A DNA stretch of 64,000 bases, taken from NCBI GenBank assembly GCA_963815255.1, contig CAWFGH010000011.1, forward strand, positions 1,002-65,001, in the 5' to 3' direction. The notes under the pieces are model-generated. The model saw only the letters and a list, made by a program, of their open reading frames with translations. It did no database searches and was not told the DNA's origin. Position 1 is the first letter of the stretch; every line of letters begins with the position of its first letter. Shown here piece after piece: positions 1 to 9,665 of this stretch. The DNA is from an uncultured delta proteobacterium. Its GTDB lineage: Bacteria > Desulfobacterota > Binatia > Binatales > Binataceae. Both the position numbers and the translations under genes were made by a program.

Positions 1-842
1 CGCAGGTCGATCACCGGCGACTTCTCCCGGAGTTCCCAAATGACCAGCGCCACAAACGAGATGAGCGCGATCACCGATAGCGTGACGATGAAGTGAGAAG
101 CAAACCAGTCGTCCTCCTGACCTTTGTCGAGCACCACCTGCAGACAGCCGATGCCGAGCGCGATCAGACCGATTCCGATGTAGTCGATGTAAGGCCGATG
201 ATGTGAGCGGCGCTGTTGCTCCAATTGCTCTGTAAGATACTCCGGATCCTTGACGAAATGGTTGGTAAGGAACAGGGACATGATTCCGATCGGCACGTTG
301 ATGTAGAAGATCCAGCGCCAACTGTAGTTATCGGTTATCCAGCCGCCGAGCGTGGGTCCGATCGAGGGCGCCAATACCACAGCCATCCCGTAGATGGCGA
401 AGGCCATTCCCAGCCTTGCGGGTGGAAAGGTGTCGGCGAGGATCGCCTGTTCGCTGGGCTGCAGGCCGCCGCCGCCCGCGCCCTGCAAGACGCGGAATAA
501 GATCAGCGTTCCGAGGCTCGGCGCCAACCCGCACAGAAATGAGCTCACCGTGAAGAGCGCCACGCAGGTCATATAGAAGCGCTTGCGCCCCATAACTTCG
601 GACGCCCACGCGCCAAGGGGAATGATGATGCCGTTGGAGACCAGATAGGAGGTCAGTATCCAGGTGGCTTCATCGGCGGTAGCCGACAAGTTGCCGGCAA
701 TATGCGGCAGCGCGACATTGGCGATGCTGCTGTCGAGCGCCTCCATGAAGGTGGCGATCGTTACGGTAAATGCGATCGGCCAGGGATTGAGCGCATACTT
801 GCGGGCCGGCACGGGCTGGCCCTCGGCTGGAGCCGCGCTCAC
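1..842 (-). CDS. DHA2-family (EmrB/QacA-type) MFS efflux permease, N-terminal part; the gene continues past the left window edge
   Basis: Own translation of the minus strand from GTG(842): VSAAPAEGQPVPARKYALNPWPIAFTVTIATFMEALDSSIANVALPHIAGNLSATADEATWILTSYLVSNG...FRVLQGAGGGGLQPSEQAIL...GWITDNYSWRWIFYINVPIG. This is a typical DHA2 N-terminus. The start overlaps the stop of the HlyD gene (GTGA). It is absent from the ORF track only because it has no stop inside the window. Confidence 0.88.
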   Translation of the reverse strand, partial: MSAAPAEGQPVPARKYALNPWPIAFTVTIATFMEALDSSIANVALPHIAGNLSATADEATWILTSYLVSNGIIIPLGAWASEVMGRKRFYMTCVALFTVSSFLCGLAPSLGTLILFRVLQGAGGGGLQPSEQAILADTFPPARLGMAFAIYGMAVVLAPSIGPTLGGWITDNYSWRWIFYINVPIGIMSLFLTNHFVKDPEYLTEQLEQQRRSHHRPYIDYIGIGLIALGIGCLQVVLDKGQEDDWFASHFIVTLSVIALISFVALVIWELREKSPVIDL

Positions 843-1984
843 TTGAGCCACACCGTGGGCTCGACCGACATGCCCGGTACCAGACGATGGTTGATATTCT
901 GGCCTGGTGCGAGATCGATGCGAACTGGAATCCGCTGCACCACTTTGACGTAATTGCCGGTCGCGTTTTCGGGCGGGAGCAGGCTGAAGCGTTCGCCCGA
1001 AGCTGAGCCCAAGCCATCCACATGCCCTTTGAAAGTGCGGCCCAGAGCATCGACGTGGATGTCTACCGGTTGGCCTGGCCGCATCCGGCGCAGCTGGTTT
1101 TCCTTGAAATTGGCGGTGACCCAGACATCGTCGAGCGGCACCACTGCCAGGAGTGATTCGCCGGGCTGCACGCGCTGCCCCGGCTCGACGCTTTTCTTGC
1201 CGATCACCCCACTCATCGGTGCGGTGATCTTGGTGTAACCGTAATTGAGCAAGGCCTGATCGAGCTCGGCCTGAGCCATCGCAACTGCCGCTTCGCGGGA
1301 ACCAATGTTCTTCAGCGCCGCGTTGGCGCCGGCTCGATCGGCATCGACCGTCGCCCGCGCCACCTTCGCGATACGCAAGCTCTCCTGGTAGTCCTCTCGC
1401 CGGGCGGCGCCTTGGGCCGCAAGGATAGCCAGTCGAGGCACATCATATTCAGCCTTTGCTCTGGTCGCTTCGTCCTGACTGACTTTGTTGAGCGCTGTTT
1501 GGTAGTCCGCGTTAGCCGATTCCACCTGCGCTTTGGTCTGAGCCAGCCTGGCGCGAGCACCTTCGACCGCGACTACGTAGTCGTCTGGGTCGATTTCAGC
1601 AAGAAGCTGTCCTGCGTGGACCGGCTGAGTATCGATAACATAGACGTGTGCGATGGTACCGTTGATTCGGGAGCTGACCGCGATGATATGTCCGTCGACC
1701 TGCGCATCGTCGGTGTCTTCATAAGAGGACAGATAGCTCCACCCTGGAACCGCGGCCGCCGCCCCGACGAAGAGGAGCAAGATCACTAAAATGAGATTTC
1801 GGCGGCGACGAGATCGTGACGATGAGGATGTTTCTATTTCTGGCGCTGCTGGACGATCAGTGCTATCGCGATCCGCAATGCCAGGCTGGCGGTCGTCTCC
1901 GTTGTGGAGCGGTTCGACGGGGCCGTCACGATCCTGGTTCCGATTCGGCGTCTCACCAGGCGCTGAAGGAGATTCGCTGCTCAA
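839..1984 (-). CDS. HlyD-family membrane-fusion (periplasmic adaptor) protein, EmrA-like
   Basis: ORF 839..2146. Single N-terminal TM (LILVILLLFVGAAAAV), YEDTDDAQVDGHIIAVSSRINGTI lipoyl-like motif, long coiled coil, C-terminal beta-barrel region. Start set to TTG 1984 because GGAGG lies 8 nt upstream and this avoids a 130-nt overlap with the OMF gene. TTG 2146 is the longest alternative. Confidence 0.85.
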   Translation of the reverse strand: MSSESPSAPGETPNRNQDRDGPVEPLHNGDDRQPGIADRDSTDRPAAPEIETSSSSRSRRRRNLILVILLLFVGAAAAVPGWSYLSSYEDTDDAQVDGHIIAVSSRINGTIAHVYVIDTQPVHAGQLLAEIDPDDYVVAVEGARARLAQTKAQVESANADYQTALNKVSQDEATRAKAEYDVPRLAILAAQGAARREDYQESLRIAKVARATVDADRAGANAALKNIGSREAAVAMAQAELDQALLNYGYTKITAPMSGVIGKKSVEPGQRVQPGESLLAVVPLDDVWVTANFKENQLRRMRPGQPVDIHVDALGRTFKGHVDGLGSASGERFSLLPPENATGNYVKVVQRIPVRIDLAPGQNINHRLVPGMSVEPTVWLK

Positions 1985-2016
1985 GTTACATACCTCCGGC
2001 GTGACACTTTTGCCGG

Positions 2017-3819
2017 TCAGACTTTTGGCTGATTGGGTCGACTGAGTCGGCCGTTCAAGCCGCTCGATGATGTGCTCGGCGACGCCTGCCCGCGCGCCGT
2101 TGGAACCGGCTCCAAAGCCGGGCGGAGTTGCGCGTCGATGTCCCAACCGCCGCCGAGCGCTTTGTAGATAGCGATCAAATAATCGATCAGTTGCTGATCG
2201 CTCTGCGCCAGTGCGTCCTGCGCCGCGTAGAGCGAGCGCTGCGCCTCAAGGACGTCTAGATAATTGGCATAGCCCTCCTCGTAGCGTTCGCGCGCGAGCA
2301 TTTCGGAGCGCTTGAAGTCCTGCGCGGAATCCGCCAGCGCCCTGTGCCTCGTTCGCTCCTTGGCATAGCCGACAAGCGCGTCTTCGACCTCGGCGAGCGC
2401 GTTCAGGACGGTCTTTTGATAAATGAGCAGCGCCTGTTCCTCCTGGGCGTTACGCGCCTCGATATAGGCCCGAATCCGGCCGCCCTCGAAGATTGGCCAG
2501 CGCATCGTTGGACCGACCGTCCACATCCGGCTTGCTCCGGCAAAAAAATCGCTGGTGCTGATCGATTCGAGCCCGGCCGCGCCAGTGATGTAAAACTTGG
2601 GATACAGGTCTGCCGTCGCTACGCCGACGCGCGCCGTGGCCGCCGCAACCTCGCGCTCGGCGCCGCGAATATCGGGACGGCGCCGGAGAAGATCCGAAGG
2701 CAGGCCGGCGGGAATCCGCACGGCGATCGCGCCGGGATCCGCGATACCCGGAATCGGCGCCATATCTGAGAGCCGCGCGTTGAGTGCGTCGGGCTCGCGA
2801 CCAAGCAACACGCTGATGCGATGGTCGGTTTGCGCAAGCTCGCTCTCGAGTTCCGGCACCTGCGCCTGCGTAGTCTCCAACAGAGATCTCGCCTGTATGA
2901 CGTCGAGTTCCGGCGCAAAGCCCATCCGGAATCGCGCTTGGGTCAGTCCCAGCGAATCGTTTTCATCGCGCACGTTTTCTCTGGTGATCAGGAGCCGGCG
3001 TTGGAGCGTCCGGACGGCAACGTAGTCGCGTGCGGCCTCGGCCAGCAGCGTTACCCGTACGTCGCGGGCGTTCTCGATCGACGCGGCAAGCTCGGCCTGC
3101 GAGGCTTCCACTCCACGCCGGAGGCCGCCGAAGACGTCCAGTTCCCAACTCGCGTCGAAGCCGGCTTCATACATGTCCTCTTCTCTTGGAATGGCCTGGG
3201 GAAACTCCCCGAAGGGTGTGTTGGCGCTGTACCGCTGACGAGTGTACGAACCATCCAAACCGATACTCGGGAGGAGCGCGCCGCGGCTCGATGCGAGGTA
3301 AGCGCGCTCTTCGCGAATCCGGGCAATTGCTATTTTTTCGTCGAGGTTGGAGGCGAGCGCCTGCTCGACTATCTCGTTGAGAGCGGAATCGTCGAAGGAT
3401 TGCCACCATTGCGCGAGATCGCTTTTGGCACCTTGGCCGGCTCCCACTTCGGACTTCTCATCGACGCCGCTCCACAGCGCCGGCAGCTTCATGAATGGAC
3501 GCTCGTAGTTGGGGCCGACCAGGCATCCCGTCGCCGTCACGCTCATGATTGCGGTCAGCGCGAGAATCAAGCCGCGTCGTGTACCTCTTGCCTTGCGAGA
3601 ACGTGCAGACCGGATGCCAGAATCGAAACAAAAGCCGGCGGCAATCCCGCCGTGCTGACCACATGTGACTCCGCGGGGGAAGGGAGTCGGCCGTCGGGCT
3701 CCTCGGGGGAAAGGAGTTGGCCTATGGGTCGACGACGGGATTGTGCCGGCAAATTTGGTTGCGTCATATCTCTGTCTCCGCACAGCGGGCCGCGCGGCGG
3801 ATGCAGCTCGTCCAGGCAT
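2017..3819 (-). CDS. Efflux transporter outer-membrane factor lipoprotein, NodT family
   Basis: ORF 2017..3996. Lipoprotein signal RRGLILALTAIMSVTATG|C followed by VGPNYERP, the two OEP repeats and ...AIYKALGGGW. Start is uncertain. ATG 3819 has an AAGGAA RBS but puts about 98 aa before the lipobox. TTG 3570 gives a short signal peptide without a charged n-region. Confidence 0.85.
   Translation of the reverse strand: MPGRAASAARPAVRRQRYDATKFAGTIPSSTHRPTPFPRGARRPTPFPRGVTCGQHGGIAAGFCFDSGIRSARSRKARGTRRGLILALTAIMSVTATGCLVGPNYERPFMKLPALWSGVDEKSEVGAGQGAKSDLAQWWQSFDDSALNEIVEQALASNLDEKIAIARIREERAYLASSRGALLPSIGLDGSYTRQRYSANTPFGEFPQAIPREEDMYEAGFDASWELDVFGGLRRGVEASQAELAASIENARDVRVTLLAEAARDYVAVRTLQRRLLITRENVRDENDSLGLTQARFRMGFAPELDVIQARSLLETTQAQVPELESELAQTDHRISVLLGREPDALNARLSDMAPIPGIADPGAIAVRIPAGLPSDLLRRRPDIRGAEREVAAATARVGVATADLYPKFYITGAAGLESISTSDFFAGASRMWTVGPTMRWPIFEGGRIRAYIEARNAQEEQALLIYQKTVLNALAEVEDALVGYAKERTRHRALADSAQDFKRSEMLARERYEEGYANYLDVLEAQRSLYAAQDALAQSDQQLIDYLIAIYKALGGGWDIDAQLRPALEPVPTARGQASPSTSSSGLNGRLSRPNQPKV
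3667..3730 (-). repeat. Tandem 30-nt direct repeat (3671-3700 / 3701-3730) forming twin stem-loops in the leader or 5' region of the OMF gene
   Basis: Units CCGCGGGGGAAGGGAGTCGGCCGTCGGGCT and CCTCGGGGGAAAGGAGTTGGCCTATGGGTC. Stems GACTCC/GGAGTC (3667-3672/3683-3688) and CTCCT/AGGAG (3699-3703/3712-3716). On the operon sense strand the loops carry a C5 run. Confidence 0.6.
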
Positions 3820-4007
3820 TTTCTCTTTCCTTATCGGCGGCATGCTGACCTGCGCCGATTTTCTGTCCGCCTCGCTGATCCAGGCTCCACGCAACCCGCG
3901 AGAAGACTTCTTCCGCAACGGTTCTCCGGATTTGGCTTGAAGATGGAAATCGCATGCTGCGGCTTTGGCGCGGTTGATGACAAAGTATATAGTCAAACAA
4001 AACCAGT

Positions 4008-4049
4008 ACCAGAGGCATTCTTTATACTGGTATAAAAAGTACCAACTTG
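4008..4049 (-). promoter_or_regulatory. Shared promoter/operator element, copy 1, in the divergent intergenic region between the efflux operon and the MmyB-like regulator
   Basis: The reverse strand reads CAAGTTGGTACTTTTTATACCAGTATAAAGAATGCCTCTGGT. The 26-nt core matches copy 2 at 23/26 positions. It contains the near-palindrome TTTATACTGGTATAAA, giving a TATAAA hexamer on both strands. It ends 11 nt before the regulator ATG. Confidence 0.6.
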
Positions 4050-4059
4050 AGGTTCAGCG

Positions 4060-4995
4060 ATGACCCACGACGAGATCAGACGGCACGAGTTGAGCGATTT
4101 TCTGCGCACCCGGCGGGCGCGCATCGCGCCCGCCGGCATCGGCTTTCCGGCGGCACATCGGCGGCGAACCCCCGGTTTGCGGCGCGAGGAAGTAGCTCAG
4201 TTGGCCGGGATGAGCGCGACCTGGTACACGTGGCTCGAGCAGCGACGTCCGATCAGCGTGTCTCGCGGAATGTTGGACAACCTGGCTCGTGTGTTACAGC
4301 TTAATCCCGTCGAGCGGATACAGTTGTTTCGGCTCGCGCGTCGCGAGCCTGCTATCGATTCCACGCCGCAGCGCGAAACGGTCAGCCCGCGGTTCCAGCG
4401 AATGCTCGATCAGTCGGACATCATGCCCTCATTTGTTATGGGGCGCCGATGGGACGTGCTCGGATGGAATCGCGCAGCTCGTGCCTTCTTCCTGGATTTC
4501 GAGCAAGTACCACCGGACGAACGGAATTTGGTTTGGCTCCTCTTCACCCACCCGGCGCTCCGCTCTTTGGTCGTCGAATGGTCGACACGAGCCCAGGACA
4601 CGCTCGCCAGGTTCCGTGCCGATTACGGCCGTTGTGCCGGCGACTCGCATTTTGTCCAGCTTGTGGACCGGCTGAACGCCGTCAGTCCGGAATTCGCCCA
4701 ATGGTGGCCGCGCCATGACGTACTGCCGATGAGCGAGGGCTGCGCGCAATACAATCATCCGCTGGTGGGACGCATGGTCGTCGATCACATGACGTTCTCG
4801 GTGGTCGATAATCCGGGATTAAGAGTCATTGCCTTGCTGCCCGAGGCAAGTTCGATAAAAAAGATGCGGAAAATTATCGCGGCTTTCCGCGGTGGCGCAG
4901 GAGCTCGTGGTGCATTGGCGGCGGCGAGCAGGGCGAAGCCCGCTCCGATGAGAACGAGAACCACCTCCTCCCTGCTGCCGACGACGAGCGGGTAA
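4060..4995 (+). CDS. MmyB-like transcriptional regulator (XRE-type HTH plus MmyB-like ligand-binding domain)
   Basis: N-terminus ELSDFLRTRRARIAPAGIGFPAAHRRRTPGLRREEVAQLAGMSATWYTWLEQRRPISVSRGMLDNLARVLQLNPVERIQLFRLAR is the hallmark MmyB-family HTH. GAGG lies 7 nt upstream of the ATG. The last ~40 aa are Arg/Ala/Thr-rich and overlap repeat copy A. Confidence 0.85.
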   Translation: MTHDEIRRHELSDFLRTRRARIAPAGIGFPAAHRRRTPGLRREEVAQLAGMSATWYTWLEQRRPISVSRGMLDNLARVLQLNPVERIQLFRLARREPAIDSTPQRETVSPRFQRMLDQSDIMPSFVMGRRWDVLGWNRAARAFFLDFEQVPPDERNLVWLLFTHPALRSLVVEWSTRAQDTLARFRADYGRCAGDSHFVQLVDRLNAVSPEFAQWWPRHDVLPMSEGCAQYNHPLVGRMVVDHMTFSVVDNPGLRVIALLPEASSIKKMRKIIAAFRGGAGARGALAAASRAKPAPMRTRTTSSLLPTTSG

Positions 4996-5423
4996 ACCTC
5001 AGAGCGACCTTACGTCGCAAGCCAGGGGCAAATCCAGTTCCCCTGTGATAGACATTCGGCATCTCGACACCACCAGAGTGGGTTTTTTCTATACGTTGTC
5101 GCGCGGCCGGTTGAGGCCGAAAACGGCGCTTCCAGATCGAGGGGCTTTAGGAGGCGTGCCGTGAAACCTCGCAAAACACTCATCGATTGTATCGGACCGG
5201 GTGGACGGGAGCCGGCGAAAAGCCAAACTCCACCGTCGAGGAGTTCAAGCCTGCCCGTGGACCGCTGGGCGTGATCGTCTCAGGTCGCCGGAGAATCCTA
5301 ACGGTCGTAAACTCAGTGCAAGTAGCTTCCATACTAGTATAAACAATGCCTCTAGTGTCGCGTTCGCTTCTGTATATATTCATGTTCATCGGTTGCCCCG
5401 ACATGCATTGGCCTGATGGGCAT
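4940..5423 (+). repeat. Segmental direct repeat, copy A (5' block 4940-5068, A-specific spacer 5069-5299, 3' block 5300-5423)
   Basis: By-eye alignment with 7212-7523. For example, GATGAGAACGAGAACCACCTCCTCCCTGCTGCCGACGACGAGCGGGTAAACCTCAGAGCGACCTTACGTCGC matches GATGAGAATGAGGACCACCTCCTCCCTGGTGCCGACGAGGAACGGTAAATCTCAGAGCGTCCTTACGTCGC. The 124-nt 3' blocks are colinear and end in ...GACATGCA(T/C)TGGCCTGA(T)GGGCAT. Confidence 0.8.
5318..5356 (+). promoter_or_regulatory. Shared promoter/operator element, copy 2, upstream of the DUF1329-like gene
   Basis: GCAAGTAGCTTCCATACTAGTATAAACAATGCCTCTAGT. Same orientation relative to its downstream gene as copies 1 and 3. It ends 118 nt upstream of ATG 5474. 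Confidence 0.6.
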
Positions 5424-5473
5424 TTGCGGATGAGCATGCGGGGACGCCGCATTCGCAAAGGAGGACCGAAGCC

Positions 5474-6857
5474 ATGCGTGTCATGAAATATTCCGACGGA
5501 TGGACCCGACGCCACTTCATGGAGCAAGCCGCAAGAGGCGTTCTAGCCGCGGGCGTGATTGCTCCCCTGTGGGAACGTGATCGGGCGAAATGGCTCGCTC
5601 GAGGCCGCCTACCCGCCCGAACTTCTCTCTATCGAGGCCTACACCAAAGGCAAGCTCAAGCCGGGGGACGTGCTAAGCGCCGAGAACGTCGACATCGTCA
5701 AAGACCTGCTCGACCCGGCCGCATATTGGCAAATCAAGCATGACGGACGTTTAGTGGACCTCGCGCCGACCGAGACCGACGTTACCAAGCTCACGCCGGT
5801 GCCCTATCTCCAAGCGACGCTGCGCAACCGCGGCAAGCACAAGATCTTCCCCGACGGCAATTGCTACACGCTCGATGGCAAGGATTGGATCGGCGGCAAC
5901 CCCTTCCCTGAGCCCAAGACGGCACAGGAAGTTCTGATGGGCAATACCTTGAGCTGGGGCAAGCACGATACGCAGGCTCACCCCATACTCGACTGGGACA
6001 CCGATGCCGATGGCAACGTCGACTATCAGTACGCCTCTTACTTGGTTGAATGGCAGACAGTCGGCCGCCTGGTCTTCGATCCCCATCCGTATATGCCGGG
6101 ACGCGAGAACCAGCTTCGCATTTTTGGCGGCATCGTGGTGGCCCCCGGAGACGTCAACGGCACCGGCACCCTGCAGGTCTGGAGTTATGACCAGCACCAG
6201 CTTCCCGGCTATTATGTCTACCAGCCGACCACCAAACGCGTACGCACCTATCCTGTCGATCAGCGTTTCGAGCCTCAATTCCCAGGCAACACGTTTTTCG
6301 CTACCGAGTACTGGATGGCGGGGGATCCTCTTTTGACGTGGAGCAATTTCAAACTGGTCGGCAAGGGCCCCGTGCTAACTTGCGCACACCACTGTGCCGA
6401 CCTCGACCAGCCGAACTGGATCCACAAGACCTGCGGCGGCAAGAGCGGTGTGAAGTACTGGCGCACGCGCATGGAGCTGGTGCCTGAGGCTTACGTGGTC
6501 GAGATGGAACCGACCATGTATCCTCGCGCGCCGATCGGCAAGAAAAGGATCTGGTACCACGCATCAACGCTATGCCCGCTCACCATGATCAGCTATGACC
6601 GTCAGGGCAAGATGTGGAAGCAGTGGGAAGGCGGCTTTGACTACTACGAGCGCAAGCCCGGGATGAAGTGGATAGAGGGAACGCCGGACCATTTCTGGAG
6701 CTGGACTCACGTGCACGCGCACGATCTGCAGAGCAACCGTATGTCGCGCTTCTACTATGCGCAGACGGTCCCAGGCGGTTACCACGCTACTGTCGACGAC
6801 GCTAGACTGTTTGGGGACCTCTGCTCGATGGAAGCGCTGGAACGCTTGGGCCGGTAG
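5474..6857 (+). CDS. DUF1329-like (LolA-like fold) envelope protein with a Tat-type signal peptide; interrupted by a +1 frameshift near 5571
   Basis: Frame 1 (5474-) encodes MRVMKYSDGWTRRHFMEQAARGVLAAGVIAPLW, with a twin-arginine motif and an h-region. The 432-aa body is ORF 5559..6857 (...SLEAAYPPELLSIEAYTKGKLKPGDVL...GGNPFPEPKTAQEV...). The body frame is closed by TGA at 5556-5558. Deleting one G of the GGG run 5571-5573 joins the two parts. The family call is from memory of DUF1329 features and the adjacent DUF1302-like gene. Confidence 0.6.
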
Positions 6858-6883
6858 TTCCCCGGCAGCGCAATTGTAACGCC

Positions 6884-6926
6884 ACCGCCGGCTCTGCTCA
6901 CGCAGCGCCGGCGGTTTTCCTTTTCC
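6884..6926 (+). terminator. Rho-independent terminator downstream of the DUF1329-like gene
   Basis: 9-bp GC stem ACCGCCGGC (6884-6892) / GCCGGCGGT (6907-6915), 14-nt loop, followed by TTTTCCTTTTCC. Confidence 0.7.
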
Positions 6927-6977
6927 AGCCCCTCCTTTGAGCGACACAGAAAGGTCGCGCACAGTACCCGATCCCGA

Positions 6978-7229
6978 TTCGGGAGCTCTCTTGCTGAGAT
7001 CGCTGCACGCGAGGGGCTCGCCGTGCGCTATTTGGGTCGCTTGTTCCGCTTGGCTTTCCTGGCGCCGGATATCGTTGAGGCCATTGTGGAGGGCCGGCAG
7101 CCGATCAGTCTTACTGCAGAAGCAGTTACGGCCGGCGCAGATACTCAGCTTCATGCGTGGGCTGCCGCGGTGCACGGTGGGGATGGAGGCCAGCGGCGGA
7201 GCGCAGTTGTGGCTCCTCCGCTCGGATGA
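6978..7229 (+). pseudogene. C-terminal fragment of a recombinase-family (serine recombinase/resolvase-type) protein; no catalytic domain present
   Basis: The frame of ORF 7023..7229, extended upstream, reads FGSSLAEIAAREGLAVRYLGRLFRLAFLAPDIVEAIVEGRQPISLTAEAVTAGADTQLHAW. The LRLAFLAPDIVEAI.EGRQP..LTAE..L motif is the conserved C-terminal HTH tail I recall from recombinase-family proteins. There is nothing recombinase-like upstream of it. Confidence 0.5.
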
Positions 7230-7523
7230 GAATGAGGACCACCTCCTCCCTGGTGCCGACGAGGAACGGTAAATCTCAGAGCGTCCTTACGTCGCGGGAA
7301 TAGATCCGACTCCCATCTGCTGAACATTCGGCACTTCGAGCGCCGTCGAGCAAATCACGCCACATTCGTACTGCCGGCCGTGGTGGTTTCGGTTCGTTCT
7401 CACGGTCGAAAGCTCTGTGCCAGTTAGTTTTAATACTAGGATAAAAAATCCTCTAGCGCCGCCTTCGCTTCTTTTGTATTCACGTTCATCGGTTGAGCCC
7501 GACATGCACTGGCCTGAGGGCAT
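7212..7523 (+). repeat. Segmental direct repeat, copy B (5' block 7212-7340, short spacer, 3' block 7400-7523)
   Basis: See copy A. Copy B lies directly after the recombinase fragment and runs into the start codon region of the DUF1302-like gene. Confidence 0.8.
7419..7457 (+). promoter_or_regulatory. Shared promoter/operator element, copy 3, upstream of the DUF1302-like gene
   Basis: GCCAGTTAGTTTTAATACTAGGATAAAAAATCCTCTAGC. The core matches copy 2 at 22/26 positions with one gap. It ends 73 nt upstream of ATG 7530. Confidence 0.55.
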
Positions 7524-7529
7524 CTACTG

Positions 7530-9665
7530 ATGAAACGCAAATTTCTGGAGAGCAGCAGCAACATGAACGCAGATTCGAAACGCAGAAAGCGCCTGTGGCT
7601 ATTTGGAGCGGTAGCGACAATGGGACTGATGCTAAGCGGTCAGACGCGAGCATACGCCCAGCAGGGAATTGCGCAAAACCTGGAGGATAGTTTTGAACTC
7701 CACGGCTATCTGGAGAATCAAGAAATCATCCGCAGCGAAAATTATGCAAGCGATTATCACGTGGCGTCGATCCGCAATCGCATCGACTTGCAGCCTTCGG
7801 GGCAGATAATCAAGGACGTCACCTTGCCCACCGTGATGGGTGTGCCTCTGGGAACTGGTCTGTCGGTCAGCTACTTCGCCGAAATCCGGCCCGGCTACGA
7901 AGGCGTATATGATCTCGTGACCGACCGCTTCGGAAATCATACCACCGGATTTTCGGGCATCGGAGTCTCGGAATTTCAGGGAACCGGGCAGACCGCCGGT
8001 TTGGCATTGCTCAGGGCCTTCGGCTACGATCCGCGACGCTTCAAGGGTGTAGTGGCCCGTACCCTCCTGTTCCCGGAGCCGGTTTCCCAGAACATCAAGT
8101 TCATCAACAACATCAACGGTGTTCCGACCGAATGCTGGAATTGCATAAACGTCGAGCAAACGGTTAGCAACCTGCGTTTCGAACGCGATGACAGTAACCT
8201 GATCTACTACCCTCTGCGCGAAGCATACCTTGATTTCCGCTGGGACTTCTTCGGGTCCAACCTGCTTCGTCTGGGCAAACAGCAGGTGGTATGGGGCAAG
8301 GCCGATTTTTTTCGCCTGCAGGACATCATCAATCCGGTGGATTTCGCGCAGCACTTCTTTATCGAGCCGTTCGAAGATACCCGAATCCCACAACTGGCGG
8401 CGTGGTTGCAGCACCGTTTCGGCGACGTTCTGGGCTTTCAGGAGGTTGCGGGCAACGTGGTATGGAATTTTGACGAGTTCAATCCAGTCGGATTGGGTGT
8501 GGGCGGTCAGCCTTGGGCGGTCAACTTCGGCGATCAAAAGCGCGCGTTCGCCTTCTCCAACGGTCTGTTTGACGCCGGAGAATGCGGCGGGAGCAAAACT
8601 CCTGGCGTCTGCAACCCCAACCATGTCAATTTCGGCCTGTATCGTGAGCGCGTGCCGGACTGGCGGCTGCGCAACAGCGGCGTCGGCATGAAGTGGGACT
8701 TCGAGCTTCCGCATCCGGCGATCCGCTTCGCGCTGACCGATTGGTGGGGTATCGCACAAACGCCCATCTTCGTAGAGAGTCAGCTTCAGGTGCTGGGCGA
8801 TCCGGCTCATCCGGGAGCGATTTCCACCGGCAGCAACTTTGCGGCTTCTGGCGTAAATTGCTCCAAGCTTGCCACCATCAGTTCGGGCTTTCCCGGTTTT
8901 TATGGACCCGGCGGCGGCGGTGCGGCAATCATCGCCACCAACGCGCGCAGCGTACATCTGGCCAAAGGCGTTAACCCGCACACCTTCCTTAACGATTGCA
9001 CCTTCGGCGCCGGCACTGAGATTCGCTATCACAAAGACAATACTCTGGGACTGTCAGCGGACTATTTCGAGCCCTTCACCGGAGTGATTATACGCGTCGA
9101 GTCGTCGTGGACGCACAACGCGCTGCTCAACGACACCGATTCGCTCGACTGGACTACCAACAACGACATCCTGCAATACGTAGTTGGCATCGACCGTCCG
9201 CACTTCATCAGATTCCTCAACCCGGACGACAGCTTCTTCACCAGCTTTCAGGTATTCGAGACTTATTATCCGGGTGCGCATAGCTCCAATGGCGGCAAGG
9301 ACGGACTGGTCACCGGCGTAAACGATTTTACTTTTACTGCGTTCACCCAGACCCACTACTATCGTGACCAGATCATCCCGCTCATCTTTGCGACCTTCGG
9401 CACCGAGGGCACCGACTCGACCATCGGCGGCAACACGGAGTGGCTGATCACCAACCATTGGTCGGCGAGTATCGGCTTCGATGCGTTCCTGGGCAAGTCA
9501 CATCAGCACAACGTCGGGTCGAACGCAGTCTTCCAGGCCGGCCACACAACGCCTCAGGACGCGCCATACAGCGAAACCATCTTCGGTCCTGCGCACATGC
9601 AGGCCGGCGGCGCTCAGCGCAACAAGGATGACGAGTTCTGGACCAGGATTCGCTACCGCTTCTAG
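7530..9665 (+). CDS. DUF1302-like outer-membrane beta-barrel protein
   Basis: 711 aa. Sec signal ...LWLFGAVATMGLMLSGQTRAYAQQ, FELHGYLENQEIIRSENY start typical of DUF1302, alternating beta-strand pattern throughout, and a C-terminal ...WTRIRYRF with terminal Phe (OMP signature). GAGGG RBS lies 9 nt upstream. Confidence 0.65.
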   Translation: MKRKFLESSSNMNADSKRRKRLWLFGAVATMGLMLSGQTRAYAQQGIAQNLEDSFELHGYLENQEIIRSENYASDYHVASIRNRIDLQPSGQIIKDVTLPTVMGVPLGTGLSVSYFAEIRPGYEGVYDLVTDRFGNHTTGFSGIGVSEFQGTGQTAGLALLRAFGYDPRRFKGVVARTLLFPEPVSQNIKFINNINGVPTECWNCINVEQTVSNLRFERDDSNLIYYPLREAYLDFRWDFFGSNLLRLGKQQVVWGKADFFRLQDIINPVDFAQHFFIEPFEDTRIPQLAAWLQHRFGDVLGFQEVAGNVVWNFDEFNPVGLGVGGQPWAVNFGDQKRAFAFSNGLFDAGECGGSKTPGVCNPNHVNFGLYRERVPDWRLRNSGVGMKWDFELPHPAIRFALTDWWGIAQTPIFVESQLQVLGDPAHPGAISTGSNFAASGVNCSKLATISSGFPGFYGPGGGGAAIIATNARSVHLAKGVNPHTFLNDCTFGAGTEIRYHKDNTLGLSADYFEPFTGVIIRVESSWTHNALLNDTDSLDWTTNNDILQYVVGIDRPHFIRFLNPDDSFFTSFQVFETYYPGAHSSNGGKDGLVTGVNDFTFTAFTQTHYYRDQIIPLIFATFGTEGTDSTIGGNTEWLITNHWSASIGFDAFLGKSHQHNVGSNAVFQAGHTTPQDAPYSETIFGPAHMQAGGAQRNKDDEFWTRIRYRF

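Follow-up and report, generated by a model that had tools for sequence, protein, structure and literature searches.

Genes and element copies at the locus

Here, we describe a directional module of ~45 bp that occurs in three copies around the gene of an MmyB-like regulator in a 64-kb stretch of DNA (hereafter the window; contig CAWFGH010000011.1, positions 1,002 to 65,001) from an uncultured delta proteobacterium of the order Binatales. Sequence comparison makes it likely that the three copies represent a composite operator-promoter module that is recognised by the adjacent regulator. Copy 1 faces an OMF-HlyD-MFS efflux operon, copy 2 faces a DUF1329 gene, and copy 3 faces a DUF1302 gene (Table 1).

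Copies of ATACYAGKATAAAnAAT(G)CCTCTRG are located at 4009-4033(-), 5331-5355(+), and 7432-7456(+). The initial annotation had described a directional element upstream of these three transcription units, and both its sequence and its coordinates were recovered as given. By hand count, the core is identical at 23/26 positions between copy 1 (reverse of 4008-4049) and copy 2 (5318-5356), and at 22/26 positions with one 1-nt gap between copies 2 and 3 (7419-7457). The regulator ATG at 4060 lies 11 nt past the end of copy 1 (4049), and the annotated near-palindrome of copy 1 is found in its place. An 11-nt core, TTAT[AC]CT[AG]GTA, occurs exactly three times in the 64 kb, at 4022-4032(+), 5332-5342(-), and 7434-7444(-); its orientation is away from the target gene in each copy and, at copy 1, towards the regulator. 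The distance to the start of DUF1329 (copy 2) and of DUF1302 (copy 3) is about 120-130 nt. A paired change across the dyad keeps its symmetry, with CCAG...CTGG in copy 1 versus CTAG...CTAG in copies 2 and 3.

Open reading frames and Pfam matches agree with the annotated gene identities of the pump operon, the MmyB-like regulator, DUF1329, and DUF1302. The regulator combines an N-terminal XRE-type helix-turn-helix (HTH_31, residues 11-86, E 9.5e-11) with a C-terminal PAS-like ligand-binding domain (MLTR_LBD, PF17765, residues 108-265, E 2.7e-50) and is a member of the MmyB-like family by these defining domain features; its direct match to MltR (3pxp) is weak (E 2.6e-4). Its gene and the OMF-HlyD-MFS operon are divergent in the window, and other targets can take the place of the operon in relatives. 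The same operon is also present in three related loci (L001, L003, and L007). The OMF gene probably starts at ATG 3819, as judged by the ribosome-binding site AGGAAAGAG, and for DUF1302 the in-frame ATG 7563 agrees with the gene call in L001. In the DUF1329 gene, the twin-arginine-like signal MKYSDGWTRRHFM lies in frame 5474-5743 and the body in another frame, the two being separated by a 1-nt frameshift near homopolymer runs (~5560-5580). The gene may be a real pseudogene or be affected by an assembly error; a long-read homopolymer error in the assemblies of these relatives is no more than a guess. The DUF1329 copy of L002 is likewise broken.

Table 1 Features of the regulator locus, with positions in the window
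Feature	Position	Strand	Description
Copy 1, box 1	4021-4036	+	TTTATACTGGTATAAA with family core TTATACTGGTA (4022-4032); core kept upstream of orthologues and distant homologues
Copy 1, box 2 and linker	4006-4015	+	GTACCAGAGG; GGTACMAGAG kept in distant homologues
Copy 1, box 3	4037-4046	+	AAGTACCAAC; reads TTGGTAC towards the pump; 'upstream arm' of the initial annotation
Copy 2	5318-5357	+	Arm GCAAGTAGC, box 1 ATACTAGTAT (family core on minus strand, 5332-5342), AAACAATGCCT, CTAGTG (5352-5357)
Copy 3	7419-7458	+	Arm GCCAGTTAG, box 1 (core TTATCCTAGTA on minus strand, 7434-7444), AAAAAAT-CCT, CTAGCG (7453-7458)
Putative efflux-operon promoter, copy 1	-35 position 4012->4007, -10 3989->3984	-	CTGGTA and TATACT; spacer 17
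Putative DUF1329 promoter, copy 2	-35 position 5352-5357, -10 5375-5380	+	CTAGTG and TATATT; spacer 17
Putative DUF1302 promoter, copy 3	-35 position 7453-7458, -10 7475-7480	+	CTAGCG and TGTATT; spacer 16, degenerate
MmyB-like regulator gene	4060-4995	+	311 aa; XRE-type HTH_31 and MLTR_LBD; proposed binding protein
OMF gene	2017-3819	-	Pfam OEP, 7e-55; first in the OMF-HlyD-MFS operon; open reading frame 2017-3996
HlyD-type adaptor gene	839-2146	-	Efflux operon
EmrB-like MFS gene	runs off left window end	-	Efflux operon; Pfam
DUF1329 gene	5474-6857	+	Pfam 2.4e-47; signal in frame 5474, body in frame 5559-6857
Regulator 3'-end remnant	7136-7272	+	Final 15-45 codons plus stop codon from a second MmyB-like gene; left edge of the copy-3 module
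DUF1302 gene	7530-9665	+	Pfam 1.7e-15; start 7530 or in-frame ATG 7563

Occurrence in the window and in other genomes

The element is rare. Allowing up to three mismatches, ATACYAGKATAAAnAATnCCTCTRG matches only copies 1 and 2 in the window, and the degenerate 25-mer gave a mean of 0.00 matches in 100 dinucleotide shuffles. An indel-tolerant search of the window (61.6% G+C) returned the three copies and nothing further. Scanned against one genome per species (185,579 species, 596 Gb), the strict pattern ATACYRGNATAAANAATN{2,3}TCTRG gave 17 stretches, which compares with a back-of-envelope chance estimate of ~17. Fourteen of the 17 lie in unrelated, mostly A+T-rich genomes without the flanking arms, which leaves L012, L017, and L019 as the true relatives. 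L019 is the contig of L001, the 'uncultured delta proteobacterium' MFD10064.bin.1.75, with two sites, and L017 is another genome labelled 'uncultured delta proteobacterium', MFD04434.bin.1.44 (CAVWLM010000001.1), whose sequence is also carried by L012. The initial annotation had considered that the motif might be a generic dispersed repeat; with three copies in the window and, apart from relatives, chance-level matches in 596 Gb, a dispersed repeat or a miniature inverted-repeat transposable element was rejected. A literature search for the box sequence returned no relevant paper and unrelated primer matches only.

The L012 contig (JBEKLB010000587.1, 3.5 kb) belongs to a metagenome-assembled genome labelled Bryobacteraceae. 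Its module of the copy-3 type (c3-type) equals that of L017 over the 94 nt shown, which may reflect either a misbinned contig or recently shared DNA.

Conservation next to regulator orthologues

Homologues of the regulator number thousands; as orthologous loci we take those recovered for regulator proteins at 59-98% identity. In every one of them, the element immediately precedes the regulator gene and is directed towards its divergent partner. The identity of this partner changes: an OMF-HlyD-MFS operon in L001 and L003, a gene for an unknown 182-aa protein in L002, a DUF1329-DUF7453-OMF-HlyD-MFS operon in L006-L009 (regulators ~70% identical), and an MFS gene in L010 and L011. DUF1329 and the MFS pump are tied to this regulator clade in two gene orders. 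Across these changing contexts, the MmyB-like regulator is the sole gene that constantly adjoins the element.

Orthologous versions of copy 2 are found in L002, L003, and L095, and those of copy 3 in L001, L017, and L012. Box 3 has the equivalents AAACTGCCA or CTGCTAT among relatives. Between copy 3 of the window and the most distant c3-type locus, L017, identity is only 44% in the upstream flank, compared with 77% for arm and core, 81% for the 28 nt that follow, and 66% for the leader. Core and promoter, at 77-81% versus 44% in the flank, are therefore under constraint. Extra copies before other genes were also seen in two relatives: L002 has a perfect one at 6502-6528(+), with TATACT 17 nt past CTGGTA, before a gene for a 156-aa protein without Pfam match, and L031 has a second copy at 30-56.

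A core box upstream of MmyB-like regulator genes

The comparison was extended to 75 MmyB-like loci (39-96% identity), the metagenome loci among which were retrieved with peptide patterns including TWYTWLEQ. CTGGTA is present ~20-140 nt upstream of the regulator start in 53/75 loci, at an expectation of 0.05 per locus, and is nearly always embedded in TTAT(C/A)CTGGTA. Most other loci have near variants (CTAGTA, CCGGTA), e.g., TTATCCTAGTA or TTATCCCGGTA. In total, about 60 of these 75 genes are preceded by the 11-nt core TTAT(A/C)CTRGTA, each time on their own strand. TAT[AC]CTGGTA was counted 43 times on the strand of the regulator and 0 times on the opposite strand. The broader TAT[AC]C[CT][AG]GTA has 60 matches within 200 nt upstream of the regulator genes, whereas the other 786,648 nt hold 7, and of these at least two are genuine extra sites. 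Many loci have a second box, (T)ATCCAGGTAC, ~23 nt upstream, in which GGTAC is followed by MAGAG (GGTACMAGAG), and many have a third box, CTGCYA or GTACC, 9-12 nt downstream; in some groups, the boxes are direct repeats 23 nt apart. While TATAC-YR-GTATA is a palindrome of 10-12 bp in the lineage of the window, the family-wide core is asymmetric and strand-specific.

Among plasmid-borne loci, Priestia megaterium pBM700 has the arrangement TTATCCTATTACAAGGGATTGTTTATACTGGTATAAC between fabF and the regulator gene, and a Deinococcus gobiensis plasmid has GGTTATCCTGGTAC between an MFS gene and the regulator gene. TTAT-led variants of the box are found in Klebsiella pneumoniae (TTATCGGGGTA) and Pseudomonas putida S12 (TTATGCTATTAC), and at most a looser form, TTATCACGGTC, in Gloeocapsopsis; the box pattern did not flag these last three loci in the plasmid sample. 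The putative recognition helix TWYTWLEQ is common to the Priestia, Deinococcus, Klebsiella, P. putida, Gloeocapsopsis, and window proteins. A Streptomyces plasmid homologue with the helix EYYTRLEQ has no clear box. The element in the window is best read as the local form of a core box that is common to MmyB-like regulators across phyla.

The Priestia locus (L111; P. megaterium QM B1551 pBM700, 2377-2498) has the same three boxes, with BMQ_RS27415 divergent from the plasmid-borne fabF. A plausible fabF promoter, TTGTAA-16-TAAAAT, overlaps box 2.

A different explanation is that the element is the site of another transcription factor, or of an alternative sigma factor, and lies near MmyB-like genes by chance. 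The link between regulator and element is drawn from sequence, and an alternative sigma factor might in principle recognise the poor -35 and the conserved CCTCTRG. However, the regulator is the only constant neighbour, the strand bias of the core relative to the regulator gene is complete, the -10 looks sigma-70 type, and GG-N10-GC is absent from every copy, which also led us to reject a sigma-54 promoter. We consider this explanation improbable.

Duplication of the module carrying copies 2 and 3

A segmental duplication of ~320-500 nt encloses copies 2 and 3 (4940-5067 vs 7218-7339, ~5231-5435 vs 7340-7535); 163 nt of it (5068-5230) are found in the first duplicate only. Copies 2 and 3 are therefore paralogues and not independent evidence for the element: the two are paralogous promoter modules, and their similarity is partly by descent. 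The duplicated segment starts within the final codons of the regulator gene, and copy 3 is preceded by the remnant of a second such gene (52 nt at 88% identity to 4940-4991; tblastn 49% amino-acid identity, E 0.003). The arrangement in relatives is simpler. In L001, L003, and L017, the regulator gene is followed directly by a c3-type module and DUF1302, and in L002 and L095 by a module of the copy-2 type (c2-type) and DUF1329; homology between c2- and c3-type modules extends across ~150 nt and takes in the leader. In the window, a regulator->DUF1329 unit and a regulator->DUF1302 unit appear to have been fused, with the second regulator gene mostly lost. Copies 2 and 3 would thus have arisen when a segment of the regulator 3' end, intergenic region, and promoter was duplicated. 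By tblastn, there are no N-terminal regulator remnants at copies 2 and 3, only the 3' remnant (7136-7270), and the view that the two copies are relics of lost divergent regulator genes was rejected.

The duplication invites the view that the copies are alike by descent only, as leftovers of duplicated intergenic DNA without a common regulatory function. The regulator remnant at copy 3 and the ~150 nt of homology between c2- and c3-type modules are what such a history would leave. Yet, while the similarity of copies 2 and 3 to each other far exceeds 40 nt, copy 1 resembles them over only ~57 nt with the element at its centre, and core and promoter have been kept where the flank has decayed. In addition, the core box recurs upstream of 40-49% identical homologues in other phyla, for which common descent of the DNA is not credible. 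Descent as the sole cause is very unlikely.

An orphan coding fragment, SLAEIAAREGLAVRYLGRLFRLAFLAPDIVEAIVEGRQPISLTAEA, at 6976-7110(+) separates DUF1329 from the duplicated segment. A recombinase C-terminus was considered for it, but neither Pfam nor NCBIfam returned a match, and by tblastn it is 40-75% identical to small hypothetical open reading frames of Sphingobium/Sphingomonas plasmids near mobile or defence genes. The fragment may be a trace of rearrangement.

The shared leader 3' of copies 2 and 3 (5381-5435, 7481-7530) reads TTCAYGTTCATCGGTTG(N)CCCGACATGCAYTGGCCTGA(N)GGGCAT and is kept in L001, L002, and L017. An upstream open reading frame in the copy 2 leader was discarded, as its ATG is ACG in copy 3 and hence not conserved. 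With a conserved leader in which a GCCC...GGGC hairpin is possible, and with a directional element whose core has a strand bias that would also fit a place in the 5' untranslated region of the regulator, an RNA-level element (leader, riboswitch, or antisense RNA) deserves mention, as does a dispersed repeat or miniature mobile element. These are, however, the least probable of the explanations considered. The alifold support of the hairpin is weak (-7.8 kcal/mol), Rfam 15 has no match at E<=1 in 3500-8000 on both strands, and the sole downstream genes near copies 2 and 3 are on the other strand from the core; the few copies in the window and the restriction to relatives in 596 Gb speak against a repeat.

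Promoter geometry

We compared 21 copies from the window and relatives, scoring as -10-like any hexamer with at least 4/6 matches to TATAAT that include A2 and T6 (TATACT, TATATT, TACAAT, etc.). Such a hexamer is present 16-17 nt past CTRGTR in 16/21 copies, whereas the other spacers between 10 and 24 gave 5 in 273 positions. The -10 of the target genes is more likely this TATAYT box than the TATAAA hexamer of the near-palindrome, which the initial annotation had put forward on both strands. For the targets, TATAAA was rejected because its position 6 is not T, no consistent -35 is found 17 nt upstream, and the comparative signal is at TATAYT; in the promoter of the regulator gene, it or the overlapping TATACT may still have a role. 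A TATAYT box 16-17 nt past CTRGTR would therefore place the conserved 3' end of the element at the -35 position and box 1 near -51.5. A scan for the sigma-70 consensus did not flag the three target promoters. AAnAAT, in which A2 and T6 are conserved, may alternatively be the -10 and the arm the -35, but distant homologues also keep the arm as a box and its fit to a -35 is inconsistent.

In box 1, TATACT (4023-4028) and TATAAA (4031-4036) are candidate -10 hexamers for the regulator gene. They lie 24-37 nt upstream of its ATG, and GAGG is present at 4049-4052. The consensus scan further returned TTGGCG-17-TATAGT at 3965-3993(+), directed towards the regulator gene. If this promoter is used, the whole operator would lie within the first ~45 nt of the regulator transcript. 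The TATATA box at the 3965-3993 promoter is palindromic and doubles as a candidate -10 of the divergent efflux promoter.

Proposed regulation

Read towards the target, the proposed module consists of the arm with box 3 (YRGTAS), box 1 (TATAC-YR-GTATA), the A-rich linker AAAnAAT, and box 2 (CCTCTRGTR). The pseudo-palindrome of box 1 holds the family core TTATMCTRGTA on the opposite strand, and box 2 would overlap the poor -35 of each target promoter. At copy 1, the core lies 28-38 nt before the regulator ATG, where bound protein would repress the regulator's own gene. As a bound site would overlap or immediately follow any regulator promoter, negative autoregulation is predicted. In response to a ligand, the bound regulator would control the promoters of the pump, DUF1329, and DUF1302. 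This ligand is inferred to be hydrophobic or amphipathic, possibly a fatty acid, because MltR binds myristate (PMC3406030), the pump is EmrAB-like, and DUF1302/DUF1329 have been linked to hydrophobic substrates, with fatty-ester and Tween phenotypes (bioRxiv 10.1101/2020.07.04.188060, 10.1101/072470).

LysR-type divergent activators have a distal recognition site and a weaker site overlapping the -35, and combine negative autoregulation with ligand-dependent activation of a divergent target. The strong distal site and the weaker site over a poor -35 in the window module resemble this layout, although the LysR-type proteins have another family and fold and the analogy is functional only. This layout, the poor -35 hexamers, the absence of an extended -10, and the fact that MmyB is an activator (PMC3406030) make us lean slightly to ligand-dependent activation at the targets.

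Ligand-relieved repression at the targets is nearly as likely, because box 2 overlaps the -35 and XRE regulators are mostly repressors. In its pure form, which we entertain more tentatively, the element is an operator from which a ligand releases the repressor, as with TetR, EmrR, or MsrR, and whose occupation occludes the -35 and spacer of the targets as well as the regulator's own promoter; this differs from the favoured reading only in the sign of control at the targets and has the operator in common with it. As a rule, efflux pumps are repressed by their local regulators. In one subgroup of homologues, a -35-like TTTATC and a TATAAT/TATGAT -10 of the regulator gene enclose the boxes, and in the window box 1 overlaps the promoter region of the regulator itself. 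Most members of the XRE family are autoregulated repressors (PMC12565409), and MsrR represses both itself and the divergent MFS gene (PMC7532634). However, CTGGTA, CTAGTG, and CTAGCG are very poor -35 hexamers that, without an extended -10, would leave the promoters weak even when derepressed. The name-giving MmyB is an activator, and the element is strictly directional with respect to its target, which a simple symmetric operator need not be.

Returning to the operator-promoter module that both signs of control presuppose, several observations weigh against it. Copies 2 and 3 are worth about one independent observation, and box 2 is degenerate in both. Copy 3 has no good -10, as TGTATT lacks the A at position 2, and none was scored in the c3-type module of L001 either; the hexamers at the -35 position match TTGACA at only 1-3/6. 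One of the proposed target genes, DUF1329, has a broken frame. The closest relatives keep whole intergenic regions, so that a distinct footprint is apparent only at <=70% protein identity, and the rarity within this genome is that of the 64 kb scanned. The 75-locus sample is biased towards one recognition helix, TWYTWLEQ, and in the unbiased plasmid sample the exact box is present in only 2/6 loci. Finally, the MltR structure leads one to expect a symmetric site, but the family core is asymmetric and tied to one strand.

The initial annotation had proposed a common promoter/operator that unites the pump, the two outer-membrane proteins, and the autoregulated regulator in one regulon. Rarity and conservation with the regulator support this proposal, with corrections on three points: copies 2 and 3 are not independent, the -10 of the targets is more likely the TATAYT box, and the core turned out to be family-wide. 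On balance, the element behaves like the classical operator of a local autoregulated regulator, with its symmetry alone being ambiguous.

Comparison with known systems

The nearest precedent is MmyB of the Streptomyces coelicolor methylenomycin cluster, which has the same architecture of XRE helix-turn-helix and PAS-like ligand domain and is under ligand-dependent control, and for which pseudo-palindromic 'B-boxes' at several promoters of one local gene set were proposed (PMC3406030). Genes of the MmyB family usually share their upstream region with a divergent target (PMC3406030). However, the targets of MmyB are antibiotic biosynthesis genes, while those in the window are transport and envelope genes, and the window protein is only distantly related, as illustrated by the helix of the Streptomyces plasmid homologue, which is not MmyB itself (EYYTRLEQ versus TWYTWLEQ). 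The literature searched, outside of which the primary B-box paper (O'Rourke 2009) remained, holds no DNA-binding consensus for MmyB-like proteins; Xu et al. 2012 mention only 'B-boxes' for MmyB (PMC3406030). The box is not among the XRE palindromes of a 2025 survey.

MltR (Caur_2278, PDB 3pxp) from Chloroflexus aurantiacus provides the family structure, a dimer with recognition helices ~34 A apart that suits a two-fold, (pseudo)palindromic DNA target and that binds myristate (PMC3406030). A bound fatty acid would fit a regulon for hydrophobic ligands. In contrast to the window locus, for which both are proposed, the DNA site and regulon of MltR are not known, and sequence similarity between the two proteins is weak.

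MsrR of Corynebacterium glutamicum is an autoregulated XRE-family regulator with one site in the intergenic region that it shares with a divergent MFS efflux gene (PMC7532634). Unlike the proposed regulator, MsrR senses oxidation via cysteine; an MmyB-type ligand domain has not been shown for it, and no additional sites at further promoters have been described. In P. putida, a DUF1302/DUF1329 pair (PP_0765/0766) with fatty-ester and Tween 20 phenotypes is under the local LuxR-type regulator PP_0767 (bioRxiv 10.1101/2020.07.04.188060). Here, the regulator family differs, the PP_0765/0766 unit is without an efflux pump, and no common motif has been described.

Implications for MmyB-like regulators and their targets

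A local ligand-sensing regulator with a predicted operator at its divergent promoter and at additional promoters is not new in kind. What the locus adds is a candidate family-wide operator and a regulatory link of DUF1329/DUF1302 to an efflux pump. We judge it an evenly balanced proposition that TTAT(C/A)CTRGTA together with a GGTAC box ~23 nt away is the target of the TWYTWLEQ branch, and that the window module was copied together with its promoter, so that DUF1329, DUF1302, and a tripartite MFS pump form one lipid-responsive regulon. As the site is strand-specific and partly a direct repeat, the family may bind DNA in a way unlike the simple palindrome expected from MltR. The TWYTWLEQ branch would then be a large, uncharacterised, and mostly non-actinobacterial group with members in Bacillota, Deinococcota, Pseudomonadota, and soil lineages that are uncultured.

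Soil bacteria and plasmids carry thousands of MmyB-like homologues, and for this large regulator family a candidate operator and a small regulon provide an experimental handle. The core is present in cultivable hosts (P. megaterium pBM700 and the D. gobiensis plasmid, with variants in K. pneumoniae and P. putida S12), and the pBM700 locus, with its link to fatty acids through fabF, would be a tractable system. For the bacterium of the window, the placement of DUF1329, DUF1302, and an EmrAB-like pump under one predicted sensor of hydrophobic compounds would support a role of the two poorly understood outer-membrane proteins, DUF1329 and DUF1302, in the handling of lipids or hydrophobic molecules.

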